IMG/VR virus record: IMGVR_UViG_3300029288_000002
Span: 32,001 to 96,000 of that record
DNA length: 64,000 nt
Reading direction: 5' to 3' (one strand)
Source: a virus
Taxonomy: Duplodnaviria; Caudoviricetes
Shown here: in pieces, positions 34,756-62,542 of the stretch
Numbering within the stretch: the first letter of the stretch is position 1
How the letters are laid out: each line of letters starts with the position of its first letter
Program-made: the position numbers and the translations under genes
The notes under the pieces: model-generated
Database searches by the model: none
Told to the model about the DNA's origin: nothing
The model's input: the letters and a program-made list of their open reading frames with translations, nothing else

Positions 34756-34929
34756 TGTAGCATAGAGTCTAAAAATGAATAGAACTATAATTTTAGTTGC
34801 AGCCCAGGCGTATAGAACAAATTACAACTATTGATAGAACAAATTGTAATTATCTTGCAACACACAGAAACCGAAATAGTGCTATCATAAGCATAGAAAT
34901 TCTACTACTCACAAAAAGGACACTTTCCG

Positions 34930-35145
34930 ATGAAACAAACCATTGCTTTACTTTTAGTTGTTGCGATCATCTTAGTCGCGTTCGTATTCGTAGTTTTGCC
35001 AGCGTTCAACGCGCTGGCAAACAACCCGGGTGAAGCAATTCGCCAAAACTACGCCTCCGCCGAAGAAGCGCAGCAGCAGCTCGAAACAAAAATGCAAAAT
35101 TGCGAGAATGACTTCTCTCAATGCGTGAATATCCTGCAACCGTAG
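34930..35145 (+). CDS. Small membrane-anchored/secreted protein
   Basis: N-terminal hydrophobic helix; RBS; terminator 35161-35190. Confidence 0.75.
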   Translation: MKQTIALLLVVAIILVAFVFVVLPAFNALANNPGEAIRQNYASAEEAQQQLETKMQNCENDFSQCVNILQP

Positions 35146-35325
35146 ACCCCCACACACAACAAAAAAGAGACTCTAACCAGTCTCTTTTTTAGTACCTGCA
35201 AATAGAACAAAATTTCTATCACGCAGGTACTACACCAGGATGACAATTAGAACATTTGTACCCTTTACAGGTGGTAAAAATCGAGTAAAATAAAGGTACA
35301 ATCTTTTTAGTCATGGAGTTTTACA

Positions 35326-35496
35326 ATGTCATACACAGTCATTTTAACAATGTCTAACGGCGAAACTCGCCCGACAAACCAATATTTTAGCAACCCCCAA
35401 ACCGCGATCATGGTTGCAAAAATAATCGAGAACCATGTTGCAGGGGTTGTATCTGCAACCCCGATTCCGGTTGTGGTGCCGGGCACAATCGTCTGA
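35326..35496 (+). CDS. Hypothetical protein, 56 aa (not in ORF track)
   Basis: GGAG RBS; upstream promoter; terminator 35517-35554. Confidence 0.65.
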   Translation: MSYTVILTMSNGETRPTNQYFSNPQTAIMVAKIIENHVAGVVSATPIPVVVPGTIV

Positions 35497-35516
35497 TAGA
35501 TTATACCTGCTACCAC

Positions 35517-35554
35517 AAAAAAACGAGAGTCTGCCGGTCAGACTCTCGTTTTTT
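35517..35554. terminator. Bidirectional intrinsic terminator
   Basis: A7-CGAGAGTCTG..CAGACTCTCG-T6. Confidence 0.85.
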
Positions 35555-35702
35555 GTTGCTTCTCTGTGTCCTATAAAATATGTAAAAACGGTGAGAATTT
35601 GACCAAGAATTAGTAACACCAAAACGCCAAAATCGTGTATAATCAATATCGTAGCAAGTTGAGAGCGGAAACGCTCCAAACCAACAACTTGCGGAGGAAA
35701 AA

Positions 35703-35906
35703 ATGGCAGTGAAATTTTACGGCAAACAGCAGGAAGAATACGAGTCAATTTGCGCACAATTGCGCGAAATTGAAGAAGAAGTAGAACGCGAATATATACC
35801 GCCAACAGTTGCACAAAACCTTAAAAATTTTGTGCGCAATAACGTTGTTAGTGTATACGCACGCTCTATCCTACTTCACATCGAATTATTTTTTCGTAAT
35901 TTGTAA
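35703..35906 (+). CDS. Hypothetical protein
   Basis: GGAGG RBS; terminator 35925-35955. Confidence 0.7.
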   Translation: MAVKFYGKQQEEYESICAQLREIEEEVEREYIPPTVAQNLKNFVRNNVVSVYARSILLHIELFFRNL

Positions 35907-36576
35907 ATAATTTTTATTATTTTTAAACCGCTATCCCTACCAGATAGCGGTTTTTGTTGTCTTAAAGTGTCCTATAAAACAACGATTTTACGGCTGGTCG
36001 GTAAACTATCCTATAAAATGGTAATTTTAGGTATAATTTGTCATATTTGTAGGTATAAAAATACCCCAGGTGGCAATCACCTGGGGTATAGTATACAAGA
36101 CTAAAGATAATTACGTGCATATTCGAGATCATTATCTGTAATAATGATCTCGCGGCGGGCGTTCCACACGCGCAAGCGAGGAAGGTCAACCAATTCGCCG
36201 TTTTCGTCAATTTTTGACGAAACGTTTAGATTCAAGGGTTCGTAAAAACGCGGCGTAAAGTGTAACACTTTGCATACCTTACGCGCTGTAGACGAAAGAA
36301 AATTTGCAGTAAACATTTTACAATTCCTTTTTTCAAAATTTCAGAATATCATCATATACCAGTATAGCCTTTTTTTATTGCCAAAAAATGACTTTCTAAA
36401 AACGATAGAAATTATACCTGGTGAAACCTACTTAAAGATAGTACGTAGATAAAAATTACCTTTTATGTCTGAAAACTGGTAGGAATAACTCCCTACCAGT
36501 TTTATTTTACCTATTGACAAAATAAGGATGATCGGTTAAGATGATAGCATACTCCGATTACAAAGGAATTACAGCA

Positions 36577-36984
36577 ATGGAAATTACAACCGCAAACTTA
36601 GACAAGGTTCTACATACACCAGGGTTAAAATCCTTGTGTGTTGAATTGGTAGCAAAGCGCAAAGAAGTTGAAAATTTGCGTAAAATTGTTGACTCTTTGT
36701 GGTTAGAATTTACTGGTGTACCTGAGAATAGGTCGTACCAGTTAGAAGAAAATATTTTTCGGCGGGCATTAATTGACATTGACCGGATTTTAAAAGAAGA
36801 AGGAATTAAACCCTTATCAATGGATATGGAACGCTGCCCGTTTTTAGTTGCACAAAACGAATTAAACCTCATCGAAAATAAAATTTTAGATATTACTGCG
36901 AAACCGTTTAATTTAAATATGGATTTGCTAAAAAATAGGCAATTATGGTTAGCCAAAATTCTGGAGGGGATGAAATACCAGTAA
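36577..36984 (+). CDS. Hypothetical early protein
   Basis: TTGACA-17-TAAGAT promoter, AAGGA RBS, terminator 37000-37030. Confidence 0.75.
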   Translation: MEITTANLDKVLHTPGLKSLCVELVAKRKEVENLRKIVDSLWLEFTGVPENRSYQLEENIFRRALIDIDRILKEEGIKPLSMDMERCPFLVAQNELNLIENKILDITAKPFNLNMDLLKNRQLWLAKILEGMKYQ

Positions 36985-37135
36985 ATAATTTTCACGCAGT
37001 AAAGCGAGTCTGACAGTCAGACTCGCTTTTATTTTAGCTATAAATTAGAACAAAGATTCTACCATTTTACCCTTGACTCTGGGGTAGGATATGGTAAGAT
37101 AGTAGCATACTCTGATTTAAGGATGATAACAAACC

Positions 37136-37459
37136 ATGAATACCAGCGTTAAACACTTTGAGCGAAACGGCTTTCCAGAATTTTTGCAAGATATTTCAGG
37201 CGATAATTTGCCATTGTACGTTAAAAAGTTTTTTGAAAGTAAACCATATGAAAAGGCTTTACACACAAAAAACGGAAAAGTTAGCTACTTTGTACCATGC
37301 AAGAACGCGCCCGTAAATGTATACCTTTCACGTCATTTTATTTTACCTGATAATTTAGCCCATCAATTATACTGGAAAATTACGATCAATCAGGTAATTT
37401 ATTATCTGATGTATGACCGTGATAACACCTGTTATGCTGTAGCTGTAGAAATAGCATAA
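37136..37459 (+). CDS. Hypothetical early protein
   Basis: Promoter-RBS-ORF-terminator cassette. Confidence 0.75.
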   Translation: MNTSVKHFERNGFPEFLQDISGDNLPLYVKKFFESKPYEKALHTKNGKVSYFVPCKNAPVNVYLSRHFILPDNLAHQLYWKITINQVIYYLMYDRDNTCYAVAVEIA

Positions 37460-37650
37460 TAACCCAAACCGCTTGACGTAAAAATCAAGCGGTTAAATTT
37501 TAGCCACAAATCAGACAAAATTTACCATAAAAAGAAGATTTTATCTGAGAATTTGCGCCAAACCTGATAGGCTAAAAGGCTTGACAAAATAAAGTACTTG
37601 AGATAAAATCAATACAGATTGACCAACCTATGACCAAAGAGGATAACGCT

Positions 37651-38001
37651 ATGAGCAATTATTACCGCACTACGTTAGAAACGCCTGAAGAAAAAAAGAC
37701 GGGTTTAACAAGTATCCAACAGGATGTTATTGTTACCTTTTCAAGTCTTATTGAACAAAGGATTAAGGTTTATACAAACCTTAATAACAACGGTTCTCAA
37801 ATGGGTGAGAAGTGGTGTAAAGCGCAAGACAAGAAAATGGATAAGATGTATACCCGTGAGCAAGAATTAATGACGGGATGGGGTATTACCCTTGATTATC
37901 CCGGGCTTTATCCTTGCTACAATTTCACCCATAACGGAAAGAGTTATCAGGAATTAAGTCTTGTAAATGCTTTCCGCAGAATAAACGGATTTTACGACTA
38001 A
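37651..38001 (+). CDS. Hypothetical early protein
   Basis: TTGACA-17-TAAAAT, GAGGA RBS, terminator 38022-38049. Confidence 0.75.
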   Translation: MSNYYRTTLETPEEKKTGLTSIQQDVIVTFSSLIEQRIKVYTNLNNNGSQMGEKWCKAQDKKMDKMYTREQELMTGWGITLDYPGLYPCYNFTHNGKSYQELSLVNAFRRINGFYD

Positions 38002-38154
38002 AATTGTCATATTCTCACTTGAAACCGCGTATACTGATACGCGGTTTTTGTTGGTCAAACCGGTATAAAATAAGTTTACAAAAACCCTTGACATGGGATA
38101 ATTTTGTGGTAAAATGGTTATAGAGTAAGATATACTACTAACAAGGATTAAACA

Positions 38155-38514
38155 ATGCACACTTTTGAGATTGAACGCGCAATTAAGGATTATTGCTTAG
38201 TTAATCGCTTGAAGATTTTTCCGAAATTTTCAGCGGTTGTCAAGAATAAACCGTCAGTATGTATAAATGACATTATAGACGATACAGAAGAATTTGAATG
38301 CGATTATTACCACTTATCAGAACCCCTTATTATAGACATATACGACAATAATACTTTAGTATTACACTGTGAAGATTTTCCACTTGACCCTTATCACCTG
38401 AAAATTTTGATTGTAAATTTTCAAAACTGCGTAGCATGGGATTTAAGAGATGTTTGTAGTAATGCTTTGAGCGAATTGCGGCGTTATACTGACATTAAAC
38501 CGCCAAAACAATAA
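38155..38514 (+). CDS. Hypothetical early protein
   Basis: Cassette; terminator 38537-38569. Confidence 0.75.
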   Translation: MHTFEIERAIKDYCLVNRLKIFPKFSAVVKNKPSVCINDIIDDTEEFECDYYHLSEPLIIDIYDNNTLVLHCEDFPLDPYHLKILIVNFQNCVAWDLRDVCSNALSELRRYTDIKPPKQ

Positions 38515-39041
38515 AATATTTTCGCTCCCGTCTACAGAAATAGCCTATACTCGCAGTATAGGCTATTTCTATTCTGGTAAAATTTTCGCTCAAAATTTGC
38601 CCGAAAATTGCTTATACCAATTGCTTGACAAAACAAAATAACCATGCTACAATCAGACCAGATTGAAATACTGACAGAAAAGGACAGCTAAAATGGACGA
38701 GTACAAGGTTTGGTTGCAAATGGAGAAGGATTATAGCCAACAAAGGATTGATGCCATTGCTCACCCTTCTTGGTTTCGTGATCCTAACTATGTAGAACAT
38801 TGCGATAAGATGCTGGTGATTATCCGTGATAACCTTAAACGGTTAGAACAAAGTTAAATTAAAATTTTCGCTCAAAGAATAGGCTATACAGGTATTGTAT
38901 AGCCTATTTATGTTAGTAAAAGCACGGTTTTATCATCAGATTCATCAGATCATTACAAAATAGTTGCAAAGGTTGAAAAGGCTTGCGTTTTATATTTTTT
39001 GTGATAAACTATATATAATCTTAGGTGAAAAGGAAACCGAA

Positions 39042-39233
39042 ATGAGATCAACAATTAACGCCAGTGAAGCTACTTCTATTTTGAAAATTTTACGCGGGGT
39101 TTCGCGTGAAAAAAGGTGCGTGGTTTGTGGTAAACCTATTCCAACGAAATATTGGTTTTTTGAGTTTACCGGAAACCATGCTGTAGGTTTATGCCAACAT
39201 TGTAAGCCTGCGCAAACTGTAATTTACTACTAA
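39042..39233 (+). CDS. Small zinc-finger protein
   Basis: CVVC..CQHC; start after AAGGA. Confidence 0.7.
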   Translation: MRSTINASEATSILKILRGVSREKRCVVCGKPIPTKYWFFEFTGNHAVGLCQHCKPAQTVIYY

Positions 39234-39385
39234 TTAGACAAAATACCTCAGATTATTCTGGGGTATTTTGTTGTCAGTATTTCATTGCAACTATCTTGCA
39301 ACGAAATTGCAATGCACAAAAAGGATATTCTGTGATAAGATTAGTACATCGAACAAGGATTTTATCACTGAAAGGACTTGCACAC

Positions 39386-39793
39386 ATGGACGAATCTAGT
39401 GAAAAAATGATTTCTCGTAAATTCGAGGTTGCTGCCGGTACGAATGAAAACGGCGAGTATGAAGTGTACGCCAGTGAAGTATGGCATGATAATTTTCGCA
39501 ATAAGGACTATGATTATAGTCGTTGGATGTCATGCCATGAAACGCAAGAGCAAGCGAAACACGAAGCTGCCCAAATGAACAAGGGTTGTTATTACTGGAA
39601 ACCTTTTGGCCAATCAGCAAAGAAGCTGGCGTTATATCATAGTCATAAGGTTAATATGTTGGGTTGTGTTATTTGCAACGATAATGACACTTGGAACGTT
39701 TATTCTAGTGATACTGCAACCACTGAAAGAATCGGAAGTGAAAAAAAGGTAAATGTAGCAATGACATTGTTAGAAAATTACTACACAAAATAA
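39386..39793 (+). CDS. Hypothetical early protein
   Basis: Start after AAGGA; terminator 39811-39843. Confidence 0.75.
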   Translation: MDESSEKMISRKFEVAAGTNENGEYEVYASEVWHDNFRNKDYDYSRWMSCHETQEQAKHEAAQMNKGCYYWKPFGQSAKKLALYHSHKVNMLGCVICNDNDTWNVYSSDTATTERIGSEKKVNVAMTLLENYYTK

Positions 39794-40111
39794 TCAAAAA
39801 ATTACTCGACAAAATAGGCTATACTTTGCAGTATAGCCTATTTATTTTACCTTGTTTTGTACAATTTTCCTTGTATAAAAATACACTTTTATATGTAATT
39901 TGCGCGTGAGCCTTTGCGGAGGCGTACAAGTGTATTTTTAGTTTAACTGGTATTTCATCGTTTTCACTGGTAAAATCGCTTAGAATCGCTCCCAATAAAC
40001 TACACAGGCATTGTATAATAGGAGTTTACCGCAAAACTGGTTAATATTGGGGTATTGACAGATAAAAAAGAATGTGATATGATGAAACCAATCTTAGGAA
40101 AGGATTAAACC

Positions 40112-40723
40112 ATGAAAAAAGAAAGAATGATAGAAATACCTGATCAAAATAGCTATACTGGTTATTCCAGTATAGAAGTTGAGTTTTTAGGGAAAGGTTC
40201 TTTCTGTACTTGCTATGTTTGGCAACCTGTACTAGAAGATATTTGGGTAATCTCTTTTCTGAGAATCGGAAATAAAGAATCTGATTATAGTAAAGAAGCA
40301 ATCGCGCTTTACTGCGATAATTCGTTTATACCCCAGATTGAAAACTTAGGGTATAGTAAAGATGAACGATTTATGGTATTCAAATCACCTTTTTACGCTA
40401 AACTTGAGAAGAAGTTTACAGAAGCATGGTTGCAAGCAAAAATGCTGAAAAAAGCATATGACGAAATTGTATATACCTCTGATAACCGCAAATTAACCGG
40501 CTATGAGATTAATCTAAAAATCATAGATCGCTTGACTGAAATGAATTTGAATGAGCGTTTATTAGATGCACTAATCGAATTAAACGACTCACTATGCAAT
40601 TATGATGACAGTTACCGTTTTGAATTTCCTACCAGAAATTTAAAGGTAGATGAAAAGGGTAATTTAATCCTGTTAGATGTAATTTTCAACAGTAAAGCGT
40701 TACGGGATCGCTTTGAAAGTTAA
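40112..40723 (+). CDS. Protein-kinase-like protein (atypical)
   Basis: Gly loop 'FLGKGSF', catalytic-loop-like 'EFPTRNL', 'LILLD'; own promoter and terminator. Confidence 0.6.
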   Translation: MKKERMIEIPDQNSYTGYSSIEVEFLGKGSFCTCYVWQPVLEDIWVISFLRIGNKESDYSKEAIALYCDNSFIPQIENLGYSKDERFMVFKSPFYAKLEKKFTEAWLQAKMLKKAYDEIVYTSDNRKLTGYEINLKIIDRLTEMNLNERLLDALIELNDSLCNYDDSYRFEFPTRNLKVDEKGNLILLDVIFNSKALRDRFES

Positions 40724-40879
40724 AAATAAATTTACTCCAACAAACAAAAAAGACGGCTAACGACCGTCTTTTATTTTGCATAGAAATATGACAATTTTTA
40801 TACAAAACATCAGATTGTCAAAAAGGCTTGACAATTCCCAAAAAGAGAGTAAAATTATAGACAAGAAAGGAACTAAGCT

Positions 40880-41089
40880 ATGGATACAATCGAGTTTACA
40901 AAGTTAGATGAAAACATGCAAGAAACAATTAGCTTGTATGCTTACATGAATAATTGTACAATCGAAGATTTTTTGCGCTTGTTTTGGGTAATTGTGCTTG
41001 ATACCCATTTTCGCTATTTGTTAGACAGTGAAATGACAAAATCATTTTACACGATATTCTGCGAAATGGGTTATAAACTGGTGATTTAA
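40880..41089 (+). CDS. Hypothetical protein
   Basis: Promoter + RBS. Confidence 0.7.
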   Translation: MDTIEFTKLDENMQETISLYAYMNNCTIEDFLRLFWVIVLDTHFRYLLDSEMTKSFYTIFCEMGYKLVI

Positions 41090-41155
41090 CCTTTTCGCCC
41101 GTGATATGGTAAACTTAGCAAGGCTTAACCAACCACTAAGAAGGAGGAATTAGCC

Positions 41156-41380
41156 ATGAAAAAGCAAAAACAGCAACTGCAGTCATACTCTTTCAAAAGA
41201 GAAATGATTATTATATTTGTCAATAGTCAAACTGATGATCAATTAGACCCCTCTATTTTTCAAAAATTTATTATTACAGGTGAAGCGATTCATTCTGCAG
41301 GATTGGGTAACTGGTTAGTAAAATCTACCAGTATTGACTTACTAAACAACAAAATGTTTGTGTATCTTGAACCAGTATAA
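41156..41380 (+). CDS. Hypothetical protein
   Basis: AGGAGG RBS. Confidence 0.7.
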   Translation: MKKQKQQLQSYSFKREMIIIFVNSQTDDQLDPSIFQKFIITGEAIHSAGLGNWLVKSTSIDLLNNKMFVYLEPV

Positions 41381-41493
41381 TCTTTTCTCGTAGTAATAGA
41401 ACAAAGATTCTATAGAAAAAGGCTTGACAAATAGCAAGAAAGGGCTATAATTATTACATACTGACAGAAGGAAAAAAGGACAATACAACAAAC

Positions 41494-41688
41494 ATGAAAC
41501 GGTTAATCGCAGAAGCTATTTTGAATGTTTTGACCAGCCGATGGTTTCAGAACTGGTATCGGTCTGGTAATTTTTACAAATACCTTACCTCTACAGGTAA
41601 AGTAATTCCTACTAAAGTCCAGATATTGCAAGAAATCGAAAATAATTTTCTTGAATATGTGGACTTTTCAAACGAGGTAGCAAAATGA
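41494..41688 (+). CDS. Hypothetical protein
   Basis: TTGACA-16-TATAAT promoter. Confidence 0.7.
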   Translation: MKRLIAEAILNVLTSRWFQNWYRSGNFYKYLTSTGKVIPTKVQILQEIENNFLEYVDFSNEVAK

Positions 41689-42037
41689 AATACATTCTAG
41701 GCGCATGTTTAGCCACCAGAAAAAAATATGCGCGTATTTTACACAGGAACAACGAGTAAATACAGGCGAATGGATTGAATGGCAAGAAATTTCAGGATTT
41801 GATTTAGCGTGTGAAACATGGAAGTTTTTTACAGGTAACGATCTGAAAGAAGAAGATTTTAACTAAACAAATAAAAAGACTTCTCCCACAAAGAGAAGTT
41901 TTTATTTAGTTATAATCTTGACAATATTTATCTATAAAATACAAAATTTACGCGCAAATTAGCCTGAAAACTGGTCATAAGAACCCTTGACTCTGGGTGA
42001 ATTTGTGGTAAAATAGATTTAATCTTTCAGACATAAG

Positions 42038-42385
42038 GTGACTAAAATGGCTTCTGCAATTGAAATTAAGAACGGAATTATTGAACCTGTCACAGATAAA
42101 CACGGTTTCTATGATATGGTTAAATATTCTATAGCAATTGAGAAATTGCTAATGGCAGCAACTGCCAATGAGATTAAGTTTATGTGGAATAACTATATTG
42201 TCACACTGCCATTAAACATTTTAACTATTTCAAAAGTAAAATATGTGTATAAAGGCAAGGTTAAATGGACAGGTAGCATTAAATTTAAACTCGTTAGCCT
42301 CGAGTTTGTCGAATTTATGATGAATGATGATATTAGACATGATTTTATGCTACCAAAAGAAGTAATTTTTGAGTTGATAAAGTAA
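42038..42385 (+). CDS. Hypothetical protein
   Basis: Cassette; terminator 42400-42431. Confidence 0.7.
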   Translation: MTKMASAIEIKNGIIEPVTDKHGFYDMVKYSIAIEKLLMAATANEIKFMWNNYIVTLPLNILTISKVKYVYKGKVKWTGSIKFKLVSLEFVEFMMNDDIRHDFMLPKEVIFELIK

Positions 42386-42581
42386 AATTGCTCAAATCTA
42401 AAAAAGACTCTGGTCGTTCCAGAGTCTTTTTATTGCATAAAACGCAAGATTTACAACCATTTTGCAATGTAATTGTAATGCAAAACCCTTGCAATAATTA
42501 GAAAGTTTGGTATACTTATATATATGAATGGTAAAGGAAACGCGAAAGCGAAAATTCAACCTTTACTAAGAAGAGGATAGA

Positions 42582-43340: not shown

Positions 43341-43341
43341 T

Positions 43342-43575: not shown

Positions 43576-43711
43576 AAAAAAAAGACTTCTTAGAAATAAG
43601 AAGTCTTCTTTTTGTATAATTACAACTTGGTTGCAATCGCTAAAACCAGTTGCATTTGCAGAAAAATGAGTTATAATATTATTATCTTGACTGACAAAAA
43701 GGAATTGACAT

Positions 43712-45344: not shown

Positions 45345-45624
45345 AACTGCCCCTTGACAAAATTTGAAAAGGGTGTATGATTTAAAAAGGTAGATAAGTT
45401 TATTTTTATTTACCTTCCTTTTTATTTACCGATAATATGAGGAGGTTTATGCTTACTTTTATCGTAATTGTAGTGCTGTTCGTTTTGTTAATTTGTAGTC
45501 TGGTAAAATCGCCAATTAGTTAAAAGAGTCTGCTTATAAGCAAACTCTTTTGTTATGATATTGCAATACTATTTTGGCTAAACTGTGATAGAATAGTATT
45601 ATCTTTCAAATAGGAGAAAGCATT

Positions 45625-45888
45625 ATGTTTTCAAAAGAGGCGCGGTATTTATTGCTTAGTGATTGTATTCAGTTTGGATTATACAATCGCCGCTACATTG
45701 AAACGGTTGTACACGCTAATACTGCTGAAGAATTATCTTGGATGTATTCTGGTCATACCGTTATTGCAAGTTTTAATACAGATGGAAAAATGATCAATGA
45801 CAAGAAGGATTCTCAAACAGTAGTTGATTTTTATGAAAGTAAACTACAATGGTTAAAAGATAATTCTGAAACGTATATTGAATTGTAA
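45625..45888 (+). CDS. Hypothetical protein
   Basis: AGGAG RBS. Confidence 0.7.
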   Translation: MFSKEARYLLLSDCIQFGLYNRRYIETVVHANTAEELSWMYSGHTVIASFNTDGKMINDKKDSQTVVDFYESKLQWLKDNSETYIEL

Positions 45889-45959
45889 TGCGATTGTAAT
45901 ACTACTTTGTGATAACAGTAGTATAATGAGTATAGTAATCAACCAAATAGGAGTTTACG

Positions 45960-46667: not shown

Positions 46668-46830
46668 AGAAAAAACGGAAGAACGTTAGAAAGAGTTTAA
46701 CCAAAAAAGCGCATAAATTCTGCCTTTTATGCAATTATTCTGTAATTCAATTGCAACACACAAATTACAGGATAGTAGTATAATAGAAACAAGAACGAAA
46801 TCAACCAAAGTAACACTAAAGGAGTTTGAG

Positions 46831-47739: not shown

Positions 47740-48087
47740 ATGTTGATTATCACAAATGCTTTTAGTTTATCTATGCTTGATGGTAACTTTTCATGTAAAC
47801 GGTTTGAAAAGATTACACAACAAGAAGCCGCGCAATGTTTCAATGAATATCGCAACAACTATGACTCTTATATTGGTCATAAGGACACAGGAAGTATTGT
47901 TGCTGATATGTTGGGATATTTTGGTACTTTGTGGGATTCGACTCGCCGCTCTTATGTAGATAAGGATGGTGATTTTATTTTGGTAGCACAATATTCTGGC
48001 ACTCGTTTACCAGAAGGGTCTACAACACTTCCACAAGGGGCTAAGATTGAATTTTGGCTGGTGCAGGAACAACGCTTGCTATATTAA
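47740..48087 (+). CDS. acrIII-1: AcrIII-1 / DUF1874 (YddF, STIV B116-like) cA4 ring nuclease anti-CRISPR
   Basis: 'NAFSLSML..SYIGHKDT..GDFILVAQYSGTRLPEGSTTLP..IEFW' family signature with catalytic GH and RLPEG. Confidence 0.85.
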   Translation: MLIITNAFSLSMLDGNFSCKRFEKITQQEAAQCFNEYRNNYDSYIGHKDTGSIVADMLGYFGTLWDSTRRSYVDKDGDFILVAQYSGTRLPEGSTTLPQGAKIEFWLVQEQRLLY

Positions 48088-48197
48088 CAACTGTTATAGA
48101 ATTTGACATTTTAGTTATGGAATTGCAATGGAAAACCCATTGCAATTTTTAGTTTAAGTGCTATACTATATCTAACCTTTGATATGGAGTAACGATT

Positions 48198-48968: not shown

Positions 48969-49265
48969 TTTTTAGTAAATAATAGACAAAATCCTCTTGG
49001 CGAGCGTTTCTTAAAATGCTGTTGGGATTACAACAGAAATACAGACATAGATTTAAAATCCTTGTCTGTTAAATCCAACAAAACAATTTGGGTATTTGAT
49101 ATAACTGACCCATATAATAGTTATGAAACCACCGCATATCTTTTTTATAAAAAGTGCATGATACGGTTAGGTCGTAAATACTAAAAACGTATTACAACTA
49201 TTTTGTAATACGTTTTTCTGTAAAAGGTAGTATAATATATTCAATCTTAGATAAGGAGTTTTACT

Positions 49266-50503: not shown

Positions 50504-50913
50504 AAAGGATATTTTAGATATGAAAATTAAAAACAAACTTTTACTTTTTGCGTTTCGACAAGACTGGAAGTTTGGGAAATGGGAGCTTTCAGCAGGAATT
50601 TATTCAAAAAGGGTTCTGTATCGTTTCCCATTTTTACAGATTGATGTTTTTTACGATTAGTAATAAAAGGAGATTAGATATGCCTAATTATGAAACGACT
50701 CGACAGAAATTTGAAAAAATGCTTGTTAATAATGGCAAGAAAGGAGCACAATAATGTTAACATTTCTTTGCATATTTTTAGTTGTTATCTTTGTGATTTA
50801 CAAGAAATTCGATTAGGTGAGGTGTTTTTTGTTATGATGTTGCAATTCTAAACTGTTGTAATTATAACCAGAAGTGGTATAATTGTTGTAATAATTCAGA
50901 TAAGGAGAAACCA

Positions 50914-52899: not shown

Positions 52900-52902
52900 A
52901 CC

Positions 52903-53130: not shown

Positions 53131-53263
53131 ATGTGATATTTTAGTTGTAAATTCTCATGTTTAAACATGAGAATTTTGTTATAAAATTGCAATATTTTGC
53201 CTATTGTAATTTTGACAGAATGTAGTATAATGATTATATCTTGATAAGGAAAGGACATAAGCA

Positions 53264-54010: not shown

Positions 54011-54012
54011 AA

Positions 54013-54448: not shown

Positions 54449-54484
54449 TAAATTTTGGGATTTTATAATTGAAAAGGAGTAAAA

Positions 54485-54718: not shown

Positions 54719-54761
54719 AGGAGATTTGAAATGATTATTATTAACGTTGATATGGATAATC

Positions 54762-54872: not shown

Positions 54873-56101
54873 TGCAACTGGTAGAGCAGCACGTAATCCG
54901 CAAGGGTGACAACCGATATGCAGAGATTGACCGTGCCTGCTTTGCATCGAAGAACCTCTACAATCTGGCAACATACACTGTTCGACAGGCTTTCATCGCG
55001 GATGAAAGCAATTACCTGAATTGGTACGCAGTGGATAAGATACTGCAATCGTCGGAAGCCTATCAGACTTTACCGGCAAAAGTATCTCAGCAAGTTCTCA
55101 AACAAGTGCATGAGACCTGGATAGGCTTCTTTGCCGCAATCAAGGTTTGGAAAGCCAATCCGGGTGCATTTCTTGGCCGGCCACGCATGCCTGGGTATAA
55201 AGACAAGCAGTCGGGTCGGAATATGCTGATCTATACTGACCAGGCATTCAGCAAGAAAAGCCTGAGAGAGGGGATCATCAAGCCCTCAAGGCTGAATATA
55301 GAGGTGAAAACAAGACAAACGCGGATTAATCAGGTCAGGATCATTCCGCGCAATAGGTTCTATGTGGTTGAGGTAGTGTACACGCGAGAACCGATACAGG
55401 CCGAATTGGATGCAGGGCTTGTGGCTGGGATAGACATTGGATTGAACAATTTAGCCACTCTAACATCAAACAAACCTGGGTTTCGACCAGTGATTGTTAA
55501 CGGGAGGCCGCTGAAGTCGCTCAATCAATTCTACAACAAGCGCAAAGCGGAACTGCAATCCAGACTAGCGAATGGTCAGCACACCTCAGAGCAAATCATC
55601 AGGCTTTCTATCAAGCGCAATTGGAGAATACGGCACTACCTGCATACTACCAGCCGTAGGTTCGTTGAACTTTTGGTAAAAGAACGGATTGCCACACTGA
55701 TTGTAGGAAAAAACAGCGCATGGAAACAGGAGATCAACCTGGGTACGAGAACCAATCAGAACTTCGTTTCTATTCCTCATGCGCAACTGATCGAGATGCT
55801 GCGATATAAGTGCCAGCTTGTTGGGATTGAAGTCATTATCCATGAAGAGAGCTACACCTCAAAGTGTTCTTTCCTGGATATGGAACCAATCGAAAAGCAT
55901 GAGACCTACCAGGGCAAGCGCATCAGTCGGGGCATGTTCCGTTCTGCTACAGGTGAAAAGATCAACGCCGACGTAAACGCCGCATACAATATCATCCGAA
56001 AAGTAATCCCCAATGCTTTTGCTGAGGGGATAGTGGGGCTTGTAGTTGCCCCTGTCAGATTTACTCTGCAAACCAAGATTGCCTCATTTTGTGGCAGTTA
56101 A
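54872..56101 (+). CDS. tnpB: TnpB RNA-guided nuclease
   Basis: 'SKNLYN', 'RPRMPGYK', RuvC-I 'GIDIGLNNL', 'EESYTSKCS', RuvC-III 'NADVNAAYNI'. Confidence 0.92.
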   Translation: MQLVEQHVIRKGDNRYAEIDRACFASKNLYNLATYTVRQAFIADESNYLNWYAVDKILQSSEAYQTLPAKVSQQVLKQVHETWIGFFAAIKVWKANPGAFLGRPRMPGYKDKQSGRNMLIYTDQAFSKKSLREGIIKPSRLNIEVKTRQTRINQVRIIPRNRFYVVEVVYTREPIQAELDAGLVAGIDIGLNNLATLTSNKPGFRPVIVNGRPLKSLNQFYNKRKAELQSRLANGQHTSEQIIRLSIKRNWRIRHYLHTTSRRFVELLVKERIATLIVGKNSAWKQEINLGTRTNQNFVSIPHAQLIEMLRYKCQLVGIEVIIHEESYTSKCSFLDMEPIEKHETYQGKRISRGMFRSATGEKINADVNAAYNIIRKVIPNAFAEGIVGLVVAPVRFTLQTKIASFCGS

Positions 56102-56142
56102 GGAAACTATAATATTATTATACAATTGAAAAGGAGATTGAT

Positions 56143-56355
56143 ATGAGCAAACCCGTTTTGAATCATTATTGGTTCAGTAAAAAACAATTGGTATTAGCGC
56201 GAGAAATAATAAGAGAAATAGACTATAAGGACACATATTGTAATATTAATGGTGATGTTTTACAATATACAGAATGCACTTCTTCGAGCCATCCTCTTGG
56301 CACATGGGATGATTATAAATATCTAGGTATTGGCGTATTCGATCACGCAGAATAG
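56143..56355 (+). CDS. Hypothetical protein
   Basis: AAGGAG RBS. Confidence 0.7.
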   Translation: MSKPVLNHYWFSKKQLVLAREIIREIDYKDTYCNINGDVLQYTECTSSSHPLGTWDDYKYLGIGVFDHAE

Positions 56356-56364
56356 GAAAACAGT

Positions 56365-56622
56365 ATGCAACCCGTAATTATGTATTTGTCGGAAGAGTCT
56401 ACATTTGGAAAGAATACTGACCGTTTTCTTGGTATTCACTTTCCCAAAGACGCAGACGTGAAAGGTGTAGTCGAAAAGGTTCTTTCAACTACTAATGGTG
56501 TAAAATCCTTTTATGATTATAAGGATGACTTTTTGCAAAATTTTTTAGTATGTTATATGAAAGGTGCTGTACCAAAAGATGTGAATGCTGCCGTTCGAGA
56601 GTCTATCGAAGCAGCTTTTTAA
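56365..56622 (+). CDS. Hypothetical protein
   Basis: Operon member. Confidence 0.7.
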   Translation: MQPVIMYLSEESTFGKNTDRFLGIHFPKDADVKGVVEKVLSTTNGVKSFYDYKDDFLQNFLVCYMKGAVPKDVNAAVRESIEAAF

Positions 56623-56636
56623 AAAAGGAGATTGAT

Positions 56637-56804
56637 ATGTATAAAATTCAGTATAGCGAAGACGGGATTGTGCGTTGTAATGTAGTAGAGCCTACTAATA
56701 AAAAGCCCTTGTTATTCGATACTAAAGAAGAGGCTAAAGCATGGATTGAAGATTCAATGATCTGTGCGTTATACGAATATTGGTATTATGTACCCGTTGA
56801 ATAG
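56637..56804 (+). CDS. Hypothetical protein
   Basis: AAGGAG RBS. Confidence 0.65.
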   Translation: MYKIQYSEDGIVRCNVVEPTNKKPLLFDTKEEAKAWIEDSMICALYEYWYYVPVE

Positions 56805-56818
56805 AGAGGAATAAAGAT

Positions 56819-57151
56819 ATGACTGCAAACAAGACTTGTGAATATTTGATTGAAGAAGTGTCAAACAATAATGTGCTACAGGGGTTTTATGTGTATCTTG
56901 ATTTTATTGCCGCGAAATACTTTTACGATACTATGAAAGATTGTAGTGAAGAATATTTTTTGTGGACAACCATGATTCATATAGGCTGTGTGTTTGTAAA
57001 GTGTGACCCTCGATATGGAAAAAAGGCGATGAAACTAAAGCTGAAGGATAGAATTATCAATGCTATTGGTGAAGATAAAAAGCGCAAAGAAGCGTTAGAA
57101 GAAGTTGAAAACGAAGAGACAAACGAGAATAGTTGTGCTGATTATGAATAA
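56819..57151 (+). CDS. Hypothetical protein
   Basis: GAGGA RBS. Confidence 0.7.
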   Translation: MTANKTCEYLIEEVSNNNVLQGFYVYLDFIAAKYFYDTMKDCSEEYFLWTTMIHIGCVFVKCDPRYGKKAMKLKLKDRIINAIGEDKKRKEALEEVENEETNENSCADYE

Positions 57152-57219
57152 AGTTAGAAACAACTTTTTTCTAACGAAGAAGCCTAAAACCCAGAGGACT
57201 CTATTGAGGAGGTGTAAAT

Positions 57220-57507
57220 ATGACTAACAAAGCATATTTTGAAGTAGTAGAATTAATGGATAACTGGTCGCATGACCCTTGTTGGGATATTGAAAATACC
57301 AAAGGGTTTGAAGAGTGGAAACCTCAATTGTTAGAATATCGGCTGACAAAAGAAAAAGAATGGAGCGACGAGTATGATAAGAGAATTTCTAATACTGCGG
57401 TTGAACTGGATTGCAGTTATGCTTTAGCAAAATATATTTTGTTACTACGCAAACATATTACTGATCTCGAAGAAAAGATTGACAAAATTGAATATGGAGG
57501 GGCATAG
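57220..57507 (+). CDS. Hypothetical protein
   Basis: GAGGAGG RBS; 'W..DPCWDIE.T.GFEE' motif. Confidence 0.75.
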   Translation: MTNKAYFEVVELMDNWSHDPCWDIENTKGFEEWKPQLLEYRLTKEKEWSDEYDKRISNTAVELDCSYALAKYILLLRKHITDLEEKIDKIEYGGA

Positions 57508-57828
57508 ATGAGCAAGCAAGAAGTTATACAATTTCTAAAAATCATATGGGGGTTTATTGTAATTGTGTTGGTTATTTCTGGATTAGCTTTTGGAATATTT
57601 TGGGCGGTAGATGACCTAATTAATTATTCAAGTTACAATTCCCCTGACGGGTATTATTACATTCGTGATATGGGGGTATATAATGCCTCTATATGGAATT
57701 GTGATGTTGTTAGATTAGATAATTTAATTCTGAAGATGTTTGTTGTATGCACCGATAAACAAGGTAACACAGATGTAGGCTATACTCAATTTTTCAAATT
57801 ATATAAACCAAACGGAGACTCAAAATGA
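57508..57828 (+). CDS. Membrane-anchored protein
   Basis: N-terminal TM helix. Confidence 0.7.
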   Translation: MSKQEVIQFLKIIWGFIVIVLVISGLAFGIFWAVDDLINYSSYNSPDGYYYIRDMGVYNASIWNCDVVRLDNLILKMFVVCTDKQGNTDVGYTQFFKLYKPNGDSK

Positions 57829-58076
57829 GACTGGATAAATCTGATTTCTATTGGGAACAAACACCTTTTTGTAATTGGTTATATACAAACAATAAAGATG
57901 TAGTGGGGGCTTTATATCATCATCACAATAATATGTGGGAATGGGAAATATATTGTTATTTAGATGGTTTTGACCAGCAAAGGATTATTGCAAGTGGATC
58001 AGGTAATAGTTTGCCGTTTAATGTAGCAAAAGAGACTGCCGAATATTTATTGTATCAATACGGAGTAATTTATTAA
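57825..58076 (+). CDS. Hypothetical Trp-rich protein
   Basis: ATGA-type overlap. Confidence 0.7.
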   Translation: MRLDKSDFYWEQTPFCNWLYTNNKDVVGALYHHHNNMWEWEIYCYLDGFDQQRIIASGSGNSLPFNVAKETAEYLLYQYGVIY

Positions 58077-58444
58077 TGTATCTAAAAATTTATTTAGAAG
58101 AAGAGTTATATAACAATAAAGAGTTCTTTGAAATTCTAATGAGCTATCCCCAGGTTTGTGAAAAAGGAACTGTTATCAAAAAGGGATTTTGTAATATCGC
58201 ATTCTTTTTTCAGGACGGTGTAGCAAAGAGAGACGTTACTGAAATATTAGAACAAATTATATCAGAGATTACTACTGCGCTCAAATTATATCCTGATAAT
58301 ATGTGTCCTAATTGTAGTAACAGAGTCACTTGGGATTATCCTTATATTTATTGGAGGTTTTCAGACAGTGGGAATTATCTAAAGGGATTTTGCTTTGAAT
58401 GTGGTAGTGATTATTTGTATAATGCAAGAAATTTAAAGGGATAG
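58076..58444 (+). CDS. Protein with C-terminal zinc ribbon
   Basis: CPNC..CFEC. Confidence 0.7.
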   Translation: MYLKIYLEEELYNNKEFFEILMSYPQVCEKGTVIKKGFCNIAFFFQDGVAKRDVTEILEQIISEITTALKLYPDNMCPNCSNRVTWDYPYIYWRFSDSGNYLKGFCFECGSDYLYNARNLKG

Positions 58445-58448
58445 AATC

Positions 58449-58658
58449 ATGAAAACATATATTGTATATATTAGTTATCGTGAAAATCATAATAATTGGG
58501 ACGAAACATATATTGTTATAGCCAATTCAGAAGAAGAGTGCTTTGATATTTTAAAAGAAGACGGAGTCAATCTTACAGGCGACTGCGATTATACAAGGGA
58601 AGTCTTTCCTGGAAAAGCGATAAAAATACATGATAGCTGGGATGGCTTTTGTCAGTAA
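58449..58658 (+). CDS. Hypothetical protein (paralogue of 62839-63027)
   Basis: 'MKTY..W.E.YIV.A..EEEC'. Confidence 0.7.
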   Translation: MKTYIVYISYRENHNNWDETYIVIANSEEECFDILKEDGVNLTGDCDYTREVFPGKAIKIHDSWDGFCQ

Positions 58659-58775
58659 ACGGTTGATTTTAGTAACGAAATTGCAACCAAAAGTACTTGC
58701 ATGAGGGTTATGATTGTGGTAGAACAATAATCAGTAAGGTAAACGCTTTACAATATTTTGAAAAGGAGATTTGGG

Positions 58776-58988
58776 ATGAAAGTTATTCTTGGTTGTTTGG
58801 GTTTAACGGCAGTAGCTCTAATTGTTTCCGCAGCAGAAGGCTGGATTGTAATGGTATTGTGGAATTGGATTATGCCTTATTTATTTAAATTACCAGAAAT
58901 AAATTTTTGGATGGCTTTGGGTTTGTTGTTTTTGGTTTCAATGTTGTTTGGTGCTTTGCGCGGAAATAATTCTTCTAACTCAAAATAA
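58776..58988 (+). CDS. Small membrane protein
   Basis: 'LWNWIMP.LF.LPEI.FW.ALGL' membrane-protein pattern. Confidence 0.75.
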   Translation: MKVILGCLGLTAVALIVSAAEGWIVMVLWNWIMPYLFKLPEINFWMALGLLFLVSMLFGALRGNNSSNSK

Positions 58989-59364
58989 TCTGTTTGTAAA
59001 ACTCGCTTGAAATATAGCGAGTTTTGTTATTATACTGTAACTTTATTACTCTTGCATGTTTAAAACAATATGGTATAATACTACTAAGATTAGAAATAAG
59101 GAGATATAGAAACTGGAAATTTCTCGTGGACAGTTATTTGAATGGCATTGCACTATAATGTCTTTAAAAGGGTTATCTTTTATGTCAGATTACTCTAATG
59201 ACATTCTTCCATCTACGGCAGAGTATGTGCTAAAATCGTTAGAAGAAATGTATGACGAAATTGAAAATGTTTCAGATGAAATGATTGTGTTATTGAAAGA
59301 AGATAAAGCAAAATAATTATTGCATAAAAACTTAGTTCGATAAACAAAAAAAAGGAGAATTATA

Positions 59365-59661
59365 ATGCTTGATAGTGAGATGAAAGGCTCTATTCTAATA
59401 AATTCATACCTTGTGTTTGAATGTGATAACAAGTACGAATTAGTATTACAATTTAGGAAGAACAAGTTTTTATCCTTCTTTGGTTACTTTTGGGAAAATA
59501 GTATTCGTGGTATTTCTATGACTAAAGATGAGTGTAACACCTTCGCAAATACTATTAAAGAATTTGAAGGACAAAAAATAACAATGGTTATTAATAATAA
59601 CAGACAAAATGTTTGTTTTCTTTTTTCTAATGGGAAAACAATCACTTTAAATTCTAACTGA
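59365..59661 (+). CDS. Hypothetical protein
   Basis: AGGAG RBS. Confidence 0.65.
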   Translation: MLDSEMKGSILINSYLVFECDNKYELVLQFRKNKFLSFFGYFWENSIRGISMTKDECNTFANTIKEFEGQKITMVINNNRQNVCFLFSNGKTITLNSN

Positions 59662-59769
59662 CTCCCCTGCCCTACTGAATAACAACAAGTTTAAATTTCA
59701 GCAGAATCGTCTACTATTCTCACATACATATGCGAATAGATAAACTTAGTCTTATTTAAAGGAAACCTC

Positions 59770-60096
59770 ATGACATTTTTTGACAATTATATAATAATCT
59801 TTTGGTCTAAAATATCCAAAGAAAAGGAGTTACCGGAATATATTGGCGAATATAATGGAGTTGTTGTTGGCAATGTATTTTTACAGTCTATAGAAAAGAC
59901 TAAAGTCAACAAGAAGATTCAGGCGAAGGAAAATTGGGTATGGGTATATCATTCGCCTAATAGTATGTATTCTTTGTCTAAAGGCTTCCTGTGTGTCTAC
60001 AGAGGCATTAAAGATAAGTATATTGATACCTCTATACAAGCAAAAAATATCGTTCAAAGCATGTTAGAACGAGAATTGGGTACTAAAAAGGCTTGA
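59770..60096 (+). CDS. Hypothetical protein
   Basis: AAGGA RBS. Confidence 0.65.
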   Translation: MTFFDNYIIIFWSKISKEKELPEYIGEYNGVVVGNVFLQSIEKTKVNKKIQAKENWVWVYHSPNSMYSLSKGFLCVYRGIKDKYIDTSIQAKNIVQSMLERELGTKKA

Positions 60097-60150
60097 CAAA
60101 CAAGAATAGTATGGTAGAATAGACTTACATTCGCCAAATAAAGGAGTAAA

Positions 60151-60402
60151 ATGACTACGTTTTTGTATTTTCCAGACGAAGAAAGCAATACTGTTACAGT
60201 AGAAAGTAACGATTTCTTAGAAGACCAAAACCTACCACATTTCATACAATATGTTGAAGGCGGAGATGTTATAATCATGTCTTCAAAACCTCCAACAGAA
60301 GGAGATGTTGAAACCTTATTTGATATAATTCGTTCTTTTATAAATGTCATTAAACGAGAAGCCAATAAACAACCACATCAGAAAAGCAAATATTTACAAT
60401 AA
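60151..60402 (+). CDS. Hypothetical protein
   Basis: TTGACA-16-TAGAAT promoter, AAGGAG. Confidence 0.7.
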   Translation: MTTFLYFPDEESNTVTVESNDFLEDQNLPHFIQYVEGGDVIIMSSKPPTEGDVETLFDIIRSFINVIKREANKQPHQKSKYLQ

Positions 60403-60594
60403 AAGCGAAAGGAATAATCATGAACTACAAAGATAATTTATTTAGAATAGACTGGTTGTTTCTTGCTTTTTATATCGGGCGAATCTGCGAGTTTAGGGTT
60501 TTCAACTCCTGTTATAGTTGTAGAAGCAATTTGCTTTACTGTATCAATATTGCTATTTGTTTTAGTTAATTATTTTATTTTTAAGGAGAATTAA

Positions 60595-60963
60595 ATGACC
60601 GGTAATACTATTGGAACTATGGAAGTATTGTGGACAAGTTTAGATGATGGCGGGCGTTGGATTGATTATTTTAAGTTTTCAGAAGAAATTGGTGAAAAGT
60701 TAGTAGGAAGTTTACCAAAGACAGAAGAGGAAGAACGGTATGACTCTACAATTTCGTCTTTGAATACGTGTACTCCTCGCTGGCTATTGGATGAACCTCC
60801 TGTTATTGATAATAGGGAATGGGATATTGTAAAGCGAGTTGAAGTTGTAGAAGAGCATATCGAAGATAAAATTTCATTGCCTGATTTTGTACAATTGTGC
60901 TATGAAGATGGAATTAGCGATACTGTAGAAATTATAGAAAAGTATAAAGGATTCTTCGGGTAA
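60595..60963 (+). CDS. Hypothetical acidic protein
   Basis: AAGGAG RBS. Confidence 0.7.
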   Translation: MTGNTIGTMEVLWTSLDDGGRWIDYFKFSEEIGEKLVGSLPKTEEEERYDSTISSLNTCTPRWLLDEPPVIDNREWDIVKRVEVVEEHIEDKISLPDFVQLCYEDGISDTVEIIEKYKGFFG

Positions 60964-60969
60964 AATAAA

Positions 60970-61686
60970 ATGAAAACTGAAAATAAAACAGACTGGATTG
61001 CTACTATGATTACATTTTTTGTAGTTGTAGTTGCTATACCTCGATGGGTGGGCGCGTTGATGGCTGCAGAAGGGTTTATTATTCCTACAAATTGGATGGG
61101 TTGGTGGATTCCAATGTCAGCGATTATGGCAGCAGGAATGGCTGTAGTTGAAGCAGCAAGTTTCGGCTATGTTTTTCACGCATGGAAAACACAAAAGGAT
61201 AAAAAGATTGCTCGAAATTTGCTAATTCTAACTATTTTCTCAGCATTGGTTTTTATTTTAGTCATTACACCATATATTGCGTCACAAGTTAAGCATACAA
61301 CAATAGATATAGTTTTACAAAATGACTTTTTTGTATTTGCCTGGGCAGCTTGTACTTCCGCAAGTACTATTACAATTGTGGCAAGCGTAGGATATGCACA
61401 ACGACCAGTGTCAAACATTGTAATGCAACCTGTAAAACCTTCTACACAAGCGGCAGCACCAGTAGATCAAACAGTTGCACCAGTGGTTGAAGCGATTGTA
61501 CAGCCAAAGAAAATTAAGCCTCCTCGTACAAACCCAACCAAAACGATGGTGTGCGAGTTATTTACAGCAAATACAAGCCTCAGTACAGCTAATTGCGCAA
61601 AACAATTAGGAAAAACAGTAGAAATCGTAAGACAATATCGGAACGAATTGATCGCAGAAGGAAAATTGCCTAAAAAGCAAGGTTAG
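60970..61686 (+). CDS. Multi-pass membrane protein with C-terminal helix-turn-helix
   Basis: About four hydrophobic segments, Pro/Gln linker, 'STANCAKQLGKTVEIVRQYRNELIAEG'. Confidence 0.7.
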   Translation: MKTENKTDWIATMITFFVVVVAIPRWVGALMAAEGFIIPTNWMGWWIPMSAIMAAGMAVVEAASFGYVFHAWKTQKDKKIARNLLILTIFSALVFILVITPYIASQVKHTTIDIVLQNDFFVFAWAACTSASTITIVASVGYAQRPVSNIVMQPVKPSTQAAAPVDQTVAPVVEAIVQPKKIKPPRTNPTKTMVCELFTANTSLSTANCAKQLGKTVEIVRQYRNELIAEGKLPKKQG

Positions 61687-61898
61687 TACTTGACAAATAT
61701 CTCTTATTGATGTAAAATAAAAGCATCAGTAAGAGATATTTTAGTAAAGGAGTTTTTCTTTATTGACAAGTGCCATTTTGATTTTGCAAGGGGCAAAACT
61801 TTAAGAGAAGCAAATGCAGTAATAGAAGAGCGACGTAGAACTATTTATAATCTGTAAATTTTATTGTAAAGAATGCGATAAAGGAGAGTTATAAGACT

Positions 61899-62360
61899 AT
61901 GAAAAAATTAGAAGAAAGTGAGATTTTAATGTTTGAAAACTTAAAACAATGTTCTATGAATTTATTTGGACATATTAGTTATCAAACATTGGCGTTTTGT
62001 AATATGGAAATATTTTTTGGGAATGTTGATAGTGAATGGTATAAATCCGAAGAATATGTGGCACGCAGATACATGCGATGGCAAAGTAATATTAGTCCCA
62101 AAGATAAATTTATCAATCGTTTTTTAGATTATACGTTCTTGCACGAAAATGATCTGCAATGGAAGGATTGCATTGAAATGAGTAAAAAATATCGCAAGGA
62201 GCTACTTGAATACAGAGAAAAATCAAAAAAAGAGATTAGGGTTATAACCTTTGAAGAATTAGAAAAAGACGAAATTCTCAAGGAGATAGTTGAAAATAAT
62301 CCTTATTATGATAAAACTGAAAAGGGATATATTCAAAATGACAAATTTCACAGACAGTAG
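61899..62360 (+). CDS. Nuclease-partner protein (module copy 3)
   Basis: 'SMNLFGH..YQTL..RRYMRWQS..PK..YTFLHENDLQWKDC..ITFEELE.DE..KE..ENN..Y.K.E.GYI'. Confidence 0.75.
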   Translation: MKKLEESEILMFENLKQCSMNLFGHISYQTLAFCNMEIFFGNVDSEWYKSEEYVARRYMRWQSNISPKDKFINRFLDYTFLHENDLQWKDCIEMSKKYRKELLEYREKSKKEIRVITFEELEKDEILKEIVENNPYYDKTEKGYIQNDKFHRQ

Positions 62361-62441
62361 AACTATAATACAAAAGTATATCAAATCAATCTTTCCTCAA
62401 AAATGTTAGAGCCATTATATGCTGGGAATTATCGTTATTAG
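62338..62441 (+). pseudogene. Decayed 5' remnant of the module nuclease
   Basis: MTNFTDSRTIIQKYIKSIFPQK, frameshift, then ..YAGNY; compare 'FLSRLFPKKGYSFVAGNH' of 20890-21471. Confidence 0.45.
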
Positions 62442-62542
62442 GTTGCAGTAATTGTTATATATTATGGGCGTTTTACAATTATCTTGCAACTTGACATTAT
62501 CCAATAAATGATTGTATAATATTAACAAAGGAGAAAGCCACA

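Follow-up and report, generated by a model that had tools for sequence, protein, structure and literature searches.

Described systems and the phage under study

In phage SPbeta, ten promoters carry a dispersed element, SPBRE, which is bound by the master repressor MrpR (PMC10516654). The DNA analysed here is a stretch of 64,000 bp, hereafter the window, which corresponds to bases 32001-96000 of a 165,307-bp IMG/VR record (IMGVR_UViG_3300029288_000002) and derives from an uncultivated SPbeta-like phage; on its plus strand, hexamers of the TTGCAA type are repeated in direct orientation at exact 11-bp steps upstream of early-arm promoters. The two phages belong to the same broad group, having in common a YonO-type RNA polymerase and the layout of the genome arms, and in both of them a short element is dispersed over early promoters. 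However, SPBRE, which was derived here from seven SPbeta promoters, has the inverted-repeat structure ATACA-N7-TGTAT, is located over or after the core promoter and serves repression, whereas the motif of the present phage is a direct repeat unrelated to it; no copy of an SPBRE-like sequence is found in this genome. The best explanation for the direct repeats, held with moderate confidence, is that they mark an activator-dependent class of promoters.

At the pho box bound by PhoB, as well as at the sites of Bacillus subtilis PhoP and of WalR, the activator is thought to touch region 4 of sigma. Promoters of the PhoB/OmpR family resemble the present ones in that units of 6-7 bp are directly repeated every 11 bp, at or instead of a deficient -35 box and ahead of a normal -10; they differ in that here the sequence is TTGCAAY, the near pair is separated from the -10 by about 22 bp rather than about 10 bp, the site is also placed one or two helical turns further upstream, and a cognate winged-helix protein was not found in the phage. 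The use of one type of site at whole-turn offsets is shared with CRP, which acts at -41.5, -61.5 and -72.5, and with lambda cI, which at OR2 touches sigma at PRM; the near position abuts the -35, as in class 3 described below. Both proteins, however, are symmetric dimers on inverted repeats, while the present units are direct. The middle promoters of T4 likewise keep the host -10, have a phage-specific box in place of the -35 and are interleaved with ordinary early promoters, but MotA reads one 9-bp box, centred at -30, and depends on AsiA as co-factor. The present phage has instead two or three units, located at -41/-52 or more distally, and nothing resembling MotA or AsiA was recognised among its proteins. 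Finally, the lambda CII sites (TTGC-N6-TTGC) are direct TTGC repeats at promoters with a poor -35, read by a small phage activator; their period is 10 bp and they straddle the -35, in contrast to the 11-bp period and the upstream location of the units described here.

Occurrence and anatomy of the repeat

Pairs of TTGCAA, TTGTAA or TTACAA at a distance of exactly 11 bp occur 15 times genome-wide, while other spacings average 1.6, so that the histogram of distances between the three hexamers shows one isolated peak, at 11 bp; six pairs are found at 22 bp. In 300 first-order Markov simulations the expected number of 11-bp pairs was 0.64 (sd 0.79, maximum 4), and more than five pairs were never obtained at any spacing. 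Independently of the site list of the original prediction, when the 64 bp preceding each candidate -10 box were analysed for enriched 6-mers, TTGCAA ranked second, the first being the canonical CTTGACAA. Counting of exact 5-mer self-repeats in the intergenic set was insensitive, because the two halves of a site differ.

When degenerate distal units are allowed, 22 promoter-associated sites can be catalogued, 15 in the window and seven further right, near genome positions 101736, 108476, 109941, 122230, 127000, 131286 and 131849. All of them lie on the plus strand, upstream of plus-strand genes, and none falls in the minus-strand late arm. These promoters serve about 45 open reading frames (ORFs) within the window alone, and the original prediction, which spoke of about a dozen early genes, was therefore an undercount. 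Its 14 coordinates each hold a pair or a triple of hexamers at exact 11-bp steps, and the distances to the -10 that it gave (class 1, 22-23 bp; class 2, 32-35 bp) are correct; in nine of these sites every unit belongs to the three named hexamers, while in the other five the distal unit is a variant with one or two mismatches. The sites of the window are the following (window coordinates; the distance is that from the proximal unit to the -10, and both -10 boxes and class assignments are predictions).

34844-34888, plus strand: class 1; units at 34844 and 34855; no -35; TG-extended -10 TATCAT at 34883, 22 bp
38953-39019, plus strand: class 2; units at 38953 and 38964; -35 TTGCGT; -10 TAAACT at 39005 (35 bp) or TATAAT at 39014 (44 bp)
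39285-39341, plus strand: class 1 with three units, at 39285, 39296 and 39307; TG-extended -10 TAAGAT at 39336, 23 bp
42451-42516, plus strand: class 2 with three units, at 42451, 42462 and 42473; -35 TTGCAA at 42489; -10 TATACT at 42511, 32 bp
43620-43677, plus strand: class 2; units at 43620 and 43631; -35 TTGCAT; -10 TATAAT at 43672, 35 bp
45550-45594, plus strand: class 1; units at 45550 (degenerate, TTGTTA) and 45561; TG-extended -10 TAGAAT at 45589, 22 bp
45883-45927, plus strand: class 1; units at 45883 and 45894, both TTGTAAT; -10 TATAAT at 45922, 22 bp
46729-46784, plus strand: class 1; units at 46729 (ATGCAA) and 46740 (CTGTAA), both degenerate, and at 46751; -10 TATAAT at 46779, 22 bp
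48112-48167, plus strand: class 2; units at 48112 (degenerate, TAGTTA) and 48123; -35 TTGCAA; -10 TATACT at 48162, 33 bp
49192-49236, plus strand: class 1; units at 49192 and 49203; -10 TATAAT at 49231, 22 bp; run of five genes downstream
50829-50883, plus strand: class 2; units at 50829 (degenerate, TTGTTA) and 50840; -35 TTGTAA; -10 TATAAT at 50878, 32 bp; run of seven genes downstream
53176-53231, plus strand: class 2; units at 53176 (degenerate, TTGTTA) and 53187; -35 TTGTAA; -10 TATAAT at 53226, 33 bp; long run downstream, including a TnpB gene
58670-58725, plus strand: two in-phase -10 candidates; units at 58670 (degenerate, TAGTAA) and 58681; -10 TATGAT at 58709, 22 bp (class 1 geometry)
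58720, plus strand: alternative -10 of the preceding site, TAGAAC, 33 bp, with -35 TTGCAT
59024-59079, plus strand: class 2, absent from the original prediction; units at 59024 and 59035 (degenerate); -35 TTGCAT; TG-extended -10 TATAAT at 59074, 33 bp
62473-62520, plus strand: class 3; units at 62473 and 62484, 1 bp from a canonical TTGACA -35; -10 TATAAT at 62515, 25 bp
29249-29277, plus strand: orphan triple of units at 11-bp steps, also new here; no -10 at any allowed distance

The orphan triple lies in a region of about 2 kb between the gene arms (window 28700-30600), with very low G+C and no convincing ORF. Gene calls were heuristic throughout, and in some cases the crude gene caller placed the start of an ORF within the TTG of a hexamer, a further reason for the insensitivity of the 5-mer count.

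Alignment of the 22 sites on the proximal unit showed that two 7-bp blocks hold all the information, the flanks being at background and the 4-bp spacer nearly unconstrained, with a mild preference for gaaa or tatc. The proximal block is TTGYAAY, with G present in all the sites and the fourth base being C in 16 and T in six, while the distal one is looser, T-W-R-Y-A-A-Y. Confinement of conservation to the blocks points to a constraint acting on them and not to recent copying of whole cassettes. Some promoters look alike beyond the motif (45561 and 45894; 34855 and 46751; 50829, 53176 and 45550), as would be the case if a single expression cassette had been duplicated to give all of them and the repeats had no function of their own; however, conservation is close to background in the spacer, in the flanks and down to the -10, and the distance quantisation and the link with the -35 described below would be lost under neutral drift, which makes inherited similarity a very unlikely explanation.

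Distance to the -10 box and promoter classes

For each of the 22 sites the -10 with the best score was sought over the range of 12-48 bp downstream of the proximal unit, irrespective of class. The distances obtained were 22 (six sites), 23, 24 (two), 25, 32 (three), 33 (four), 35 (two), 43 and 44 bp (two), and no best -10 was located at 26-31 or 36-42 bp. Thus, three clusters are present, at 22-25, 32-35 and 43-44 bp, each separated from the next by one helical turn; the chance that all the sites fall within these ten values is about 1e-13, a post hoc figure which assumes uniform distances over the searched range. The three calls at 43-44 bp have an equally plausible in-phase alternative at 33-35 bp, and the -10 call for genome 101747 is doubtful, since it overlaps a ribosome-binding site.

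Three promoter classes can be distinguished on this basis. Class 1 includes six sites with the -10 at 22-23 bp and no -35 box: at a spacer of 16-18 bp, the best match to TTGACA is three bases out of six, except for four out of six at 39307. Class 2, with twelve sites at 32-35 bp, has TTGCAA, TTGTAA or TTGCAT as -35 in ten cases, and usually retains the A-tract found ahead of canonical -35 boxes. Class 3 consists of four sites at 24-25 bp (62473 and three right of the window), in which the proximal unit is 1 bp away from a TTGACA-like -35, exact in two sites and with one mismatch in the other two.

This geometry also bears on the idea that the pair is read directly by a sigma factor, either as the -24/-12 element of sigma-54 or as the -35 of an alternative sigma. 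Sigma-54 promoters have an invariant GG at -24 and GC at -12, and transcription starts 12 bp downstream. The proximal unit fits the -12 element (TTGCW), and both the 11-bp spacing from start to start and the 7+4+5 layout equal the consensus; however, the invariant GG is present in none of the 22 distal units, strong sigma-A-type -10 boxes are found at 22-35 bp instead of a start site 12 bp away, and no protein with sigma region 4 is encoded by the phage, so that direct reading by sigma is hardly credible. The one weak Sigma70_r4 match proved to be a LAGLIDADG homing endonuclease located inside an RNA ligase gene. Readings of the sites as MerR-type long-spacer promoters or as UP elements were rejected on sequence grounds.

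Two populations of early promoters

The repeats are linked to the quality of the -35 box. The combination of TTGYAW, 16-18 bp and a -10 box occurs 14 times on the plus strand, and in nine of these a pair is located 16-19 bp upstream of the -35; among 34 TTGACA promoters, a pair at the same offset is never found, and only two have a pair directly abutting the -35. A two-hexamer sigma-70 scan retrieved a dozen canonical promoters, scoring 11-12 out of 12, interleaved with the repeat-bearing ones; class 2 promoters score 10 out of 12, and class 1 is missed entirely. About 34-38 canonical, constitutive-looking TTGACA promoters are interleaved in this way with the promoters, at least 22, that carry the pair. 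Since the pair is associated with the TTGYAW boxes and the canonical promoters lie among them, two promoter populations are present on one arm, and the repeat accompanies the weak one. Several of the canonical TTGACA promoters between window positions 36503 and 42915 have in common a ATTTTACC-like word, right after the upstream terminator, which may represent a second shared cassette part or binding site.

A deficient -35 together with an upstream site in helical phase with the -10, the defining feature of an activator-dependent class, is thus found here, and the original prediction of such a class holds as an inference from sequence, given the whole-turn positions and the missing or weak -35 boxes. 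It is somewhat probable, on balance, that the repeats are sites of a sequence-specific activator, acting on a group of early-arm promoters with a timing or conditions of their own. The location on the same helix face at whole-turn offsets, combined with the -35 defects, is the signature expected of an activator, while the direct orientation of the repeats suggests protomers arranged head to tail. Two, or sometimes three, protomers would bind one helical turn apart, at promoters used by the main sigma factor of the host; the pair would be centred near -43/-45, -54 or possibly -65, with all the registers on the same face. In the near register either the -35 is missing, and the factor would stand in for it and touch sigma region 4, or a canonical -35 directly abuts the site; lambda cI at PRM and PhoB at pho boxes act from such a position. 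In the far register, where the -35 is a weakened TTGYAW, the polymerase would be recruited from one turn further up, in a class I-type arrangement. The likeliest role of the factor would be switching on a subset of early-arm promoters among the constitutive-looking TTGACA ones.

The same sites could instead be operators, either for a temporal shut-off factor or for an immunity-type master repressor that silences a subset of early promoters. A precedent exists in the same phage group, namely MrpR acting on the repeated element of SPbeta promoters (PMC10516654), and a further protomer could occlude the class 2 -35, since TTGYAW itself looks like a half-site. However, this -35-like hexamer, uniform as it is, lies 16-19 bp from the pair and is therefore out of register; the pairs are upstream of the core promoter and in phase with the -10 over three registers, a phasing which repression does not need, and class 1 has no -35 to occlude. 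Furthermore, SPBRE, as an inverted repeat over the core promoter, offers no counterpart to the present motif, and homologues of MrpR (YopR; searched by tblastn), AimR, YonR and SprA are all missing from this phage, YonO being the only one shared among the SPbeta proteins compared. Repression is for these reasons unlikely, although the class 2 -35 would be compatible with a repressor, as well as with a factor whose specificity resembles that of sigma region 4.

The putative binding factor

Several points weigh against activation by a dedicated protein. No match to Trans_reg_C (PF00486) was obtained at E<=1 in the 165-kb phage genome, and the phage OmpR-type regulator considered in the original prediction thus found no candidate; profile searches of the genome detected no HTH_3/XRE-type protein and no sigma region 4 protein, and about 195 small phage proteins compared with Pfam (78 from window 28-64 kb and 117 from the right arm) gave no transcription-factor family. 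A TG-extended -10, found in three of the six class 1 sites, might allow these promoters to fire unaided, and the half-site-like -35 of class 2 would also fit a protein competing with sigma. The transcription starts are predictions only, and no related phage suited to an analysis of conservation was found. DNA matching in the phage collection gave none, terminase relatives in IMG/VR were limited to four short contigs with about 50% identity, and searches with three other proteins found no relatives. A comparison of the 78 proteins from window 28-64 kb with PHROGs also yielded no transcription factor, and a literature search for the hexamer combined with direct repeats, phage or response regulator returned nothing relevant.

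The search for a winged-helix regulator, suggested along with the original prediction, produced a single weak lead.

63613-63822, plus strand: acidic protein of 69 aa, predicted to fold as a winged helix; encoded in the operon of the class 3 promoter at 62473

Its neighbours in the ESM-Atlas are winged helices of the DsrD, MarR and BlaI types (TM 0.6-0.69); the AlphaFold model has a pLDDT of 80, and Foldseek matches to IclR, ArsR and MarR winged helices are weak (E > 0.1). As the only winged-helix lead found, this protein is a weak candidate for the binding factor, and both its acidic pI of 4.3 and the weakness of the fold matches add to the points listed above.

In the original prediction the reader was proposed, as one of two possibilities, to be a host response regulator of the OmpR/PhoB family, WalR or another, through which part of the early programme would follow a two-component signal of the host. 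The geometry is the classic one for this family, with 6-7-bp direct repeats of 11-bp period adjoining or replacing the -35, and both the 11-bp spike and the two 7-bp blocks 11 bp apart in the 22 sites agree with it, but such a geometry is not exclusive to OmpR/PhoB proteins. The phage itself encodes no recognisable regulator, in agreement with a host factor, and TGTAAT-N5-TGTAAT is literally present at 45884. The WalR box TGTWAH-N5-TGTWAH, however, is matched exactly by only three of the 22 sites (45883, 59024 and genome 131286) and is failed by the other 19: the consensus is TTGCAAY, and a C replaces the T required at the third base of the WalR hexamer in 16 proximal units. Moreover, the motif does not fit the usual boxes of B. 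subtilis PhoP, ResD, CtsR and Spo0A, and it is lacking in the nearest cultured phages of several Bacillota hosts. Wiring to host WalR or OmpR is thus unsupported, and it is unlikely that a host response regulator controls more than 20 early-arm promoters, and with them about 45 or more small ORFs of takeover or anti-defence type, according to the envelope or nutrient state of the cell.

The motif is absent from SPbeta, from Lysinibacillus phage LC76P1 and from Clostridioides phage LIBA2945, and occurs once in Thomasclavelia phage TR-TP1; judged from these genomes it is lineage-specific, which mildly favours a lineage-specific reader encoded by the phage. We infer that an activator, as the preferred explanation for the repeats, is somewhat more likely to be a phage-encoded protein of no known family than a host protein. 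An activator family, so far unrecognised, may read -35-like TTGCAA tandems and act as a movable surrogate for the contact between the -35 and sigma region 4.

Genomic context

The genome has the layout typical of SPbeta, with a minus-strand arm at 16.5-59 kb that contains YonO and the apparent late genes, and a plus-strand arm, starting from about 64.5 kb, made of a long series of small genes.

Window 16225-18909, minus strand: YonO-type single-subunit RNA polymerase, 894 aa, with a Pfam RdRP match and 27% identity to SPbeta YonO

The minus-strand late arm is probably transcribed by this enzyme of the phage. Terminases from phages of Thomasclavelia, Lysinibacillus and Clostridioides and from SPbeta-group phages of Bacillus share 33-36% identity with that of the present phage. 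A low-G+C Bacillota host is indicated by the promoters, the ribosome-binding sites and a G+C content of 34%; the TnpB gene is uninformative in this respect, its best matches, with about 60% identity, being in Chloroflexota and cyanobacteria. The record ends with a direct repeat of 127 bp, 100% identical between genome 1-127 and 165181-165307, which most likely reflects the overlap of a circular assembly instead of a genuine long terminal redundancy.

For about 90% of the early-arm ORFs there is no match to any family. A STIV B116-like (AcrIII-1 type) protein is encoded at window 47740-48087 on the plus strand, and a canonical promoter drives its gene; HicA-toxin and Macro-domain are the only further Pfam matches in the early arm. 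The RNA ligase gene (genome 101802-103780; L007:1103-3081) is apparently interrupted by a 275-aa ORF for a LAGLIDADG/HTH homing endonuclease, and the repeat pair at genome 101736 lies just upstream of this split gene.

Similar arrays in other viruses

A scan of IMG/VR for three phased units found more than 120 viral loci, mostly single 11-bp iteron arrays in unrelated phages. These arrays (L009-L128) are of the TTGCAAC or TTGTAAC type, and the neighbour most often found beside them is a conserved protein of about 500 aa, suggesting that they are probably replication origins; apart from methyltransferases, the proteins beside them have no homologue in the present phage. A few arrays (L064, L114) are located at class 2-like distances from a TTGACA promoter. 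Two unrelated contigs with 47-48% G+C, L024 (10078-10106, minus strand) and L081 (10060-10088, plus strand), carry a TTGCAAY triple with the same tatc/gaat spacers, followed exactly 22 bp after the last unit by a -10-like box, ahead of an operon that, in the case of L081, encodes an ERF recombinase. The geometry of class 1 is here seen in another phage lineage, and the same kind of reader may therefore be more widespread.

Significance

The regulatory motif described here is well supported and new, while the kind of phage gene control to which it belongs is familiar. The timing logic of the single-gene cassette arms in large SPbeta-like phages is almost unknown, and here a cis-code can be read from the sequence, providing a ready-made regulon, a testable prediction on half-turn shifts of the repeats and a bait DNA for the regulator. 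Should the regulator turn out to belong to host signalling, the phage would provide a clear example of takeover genes conditioned on host physiology; if, instead, it were an ORFan of the phage, it would represent a new family of activators.

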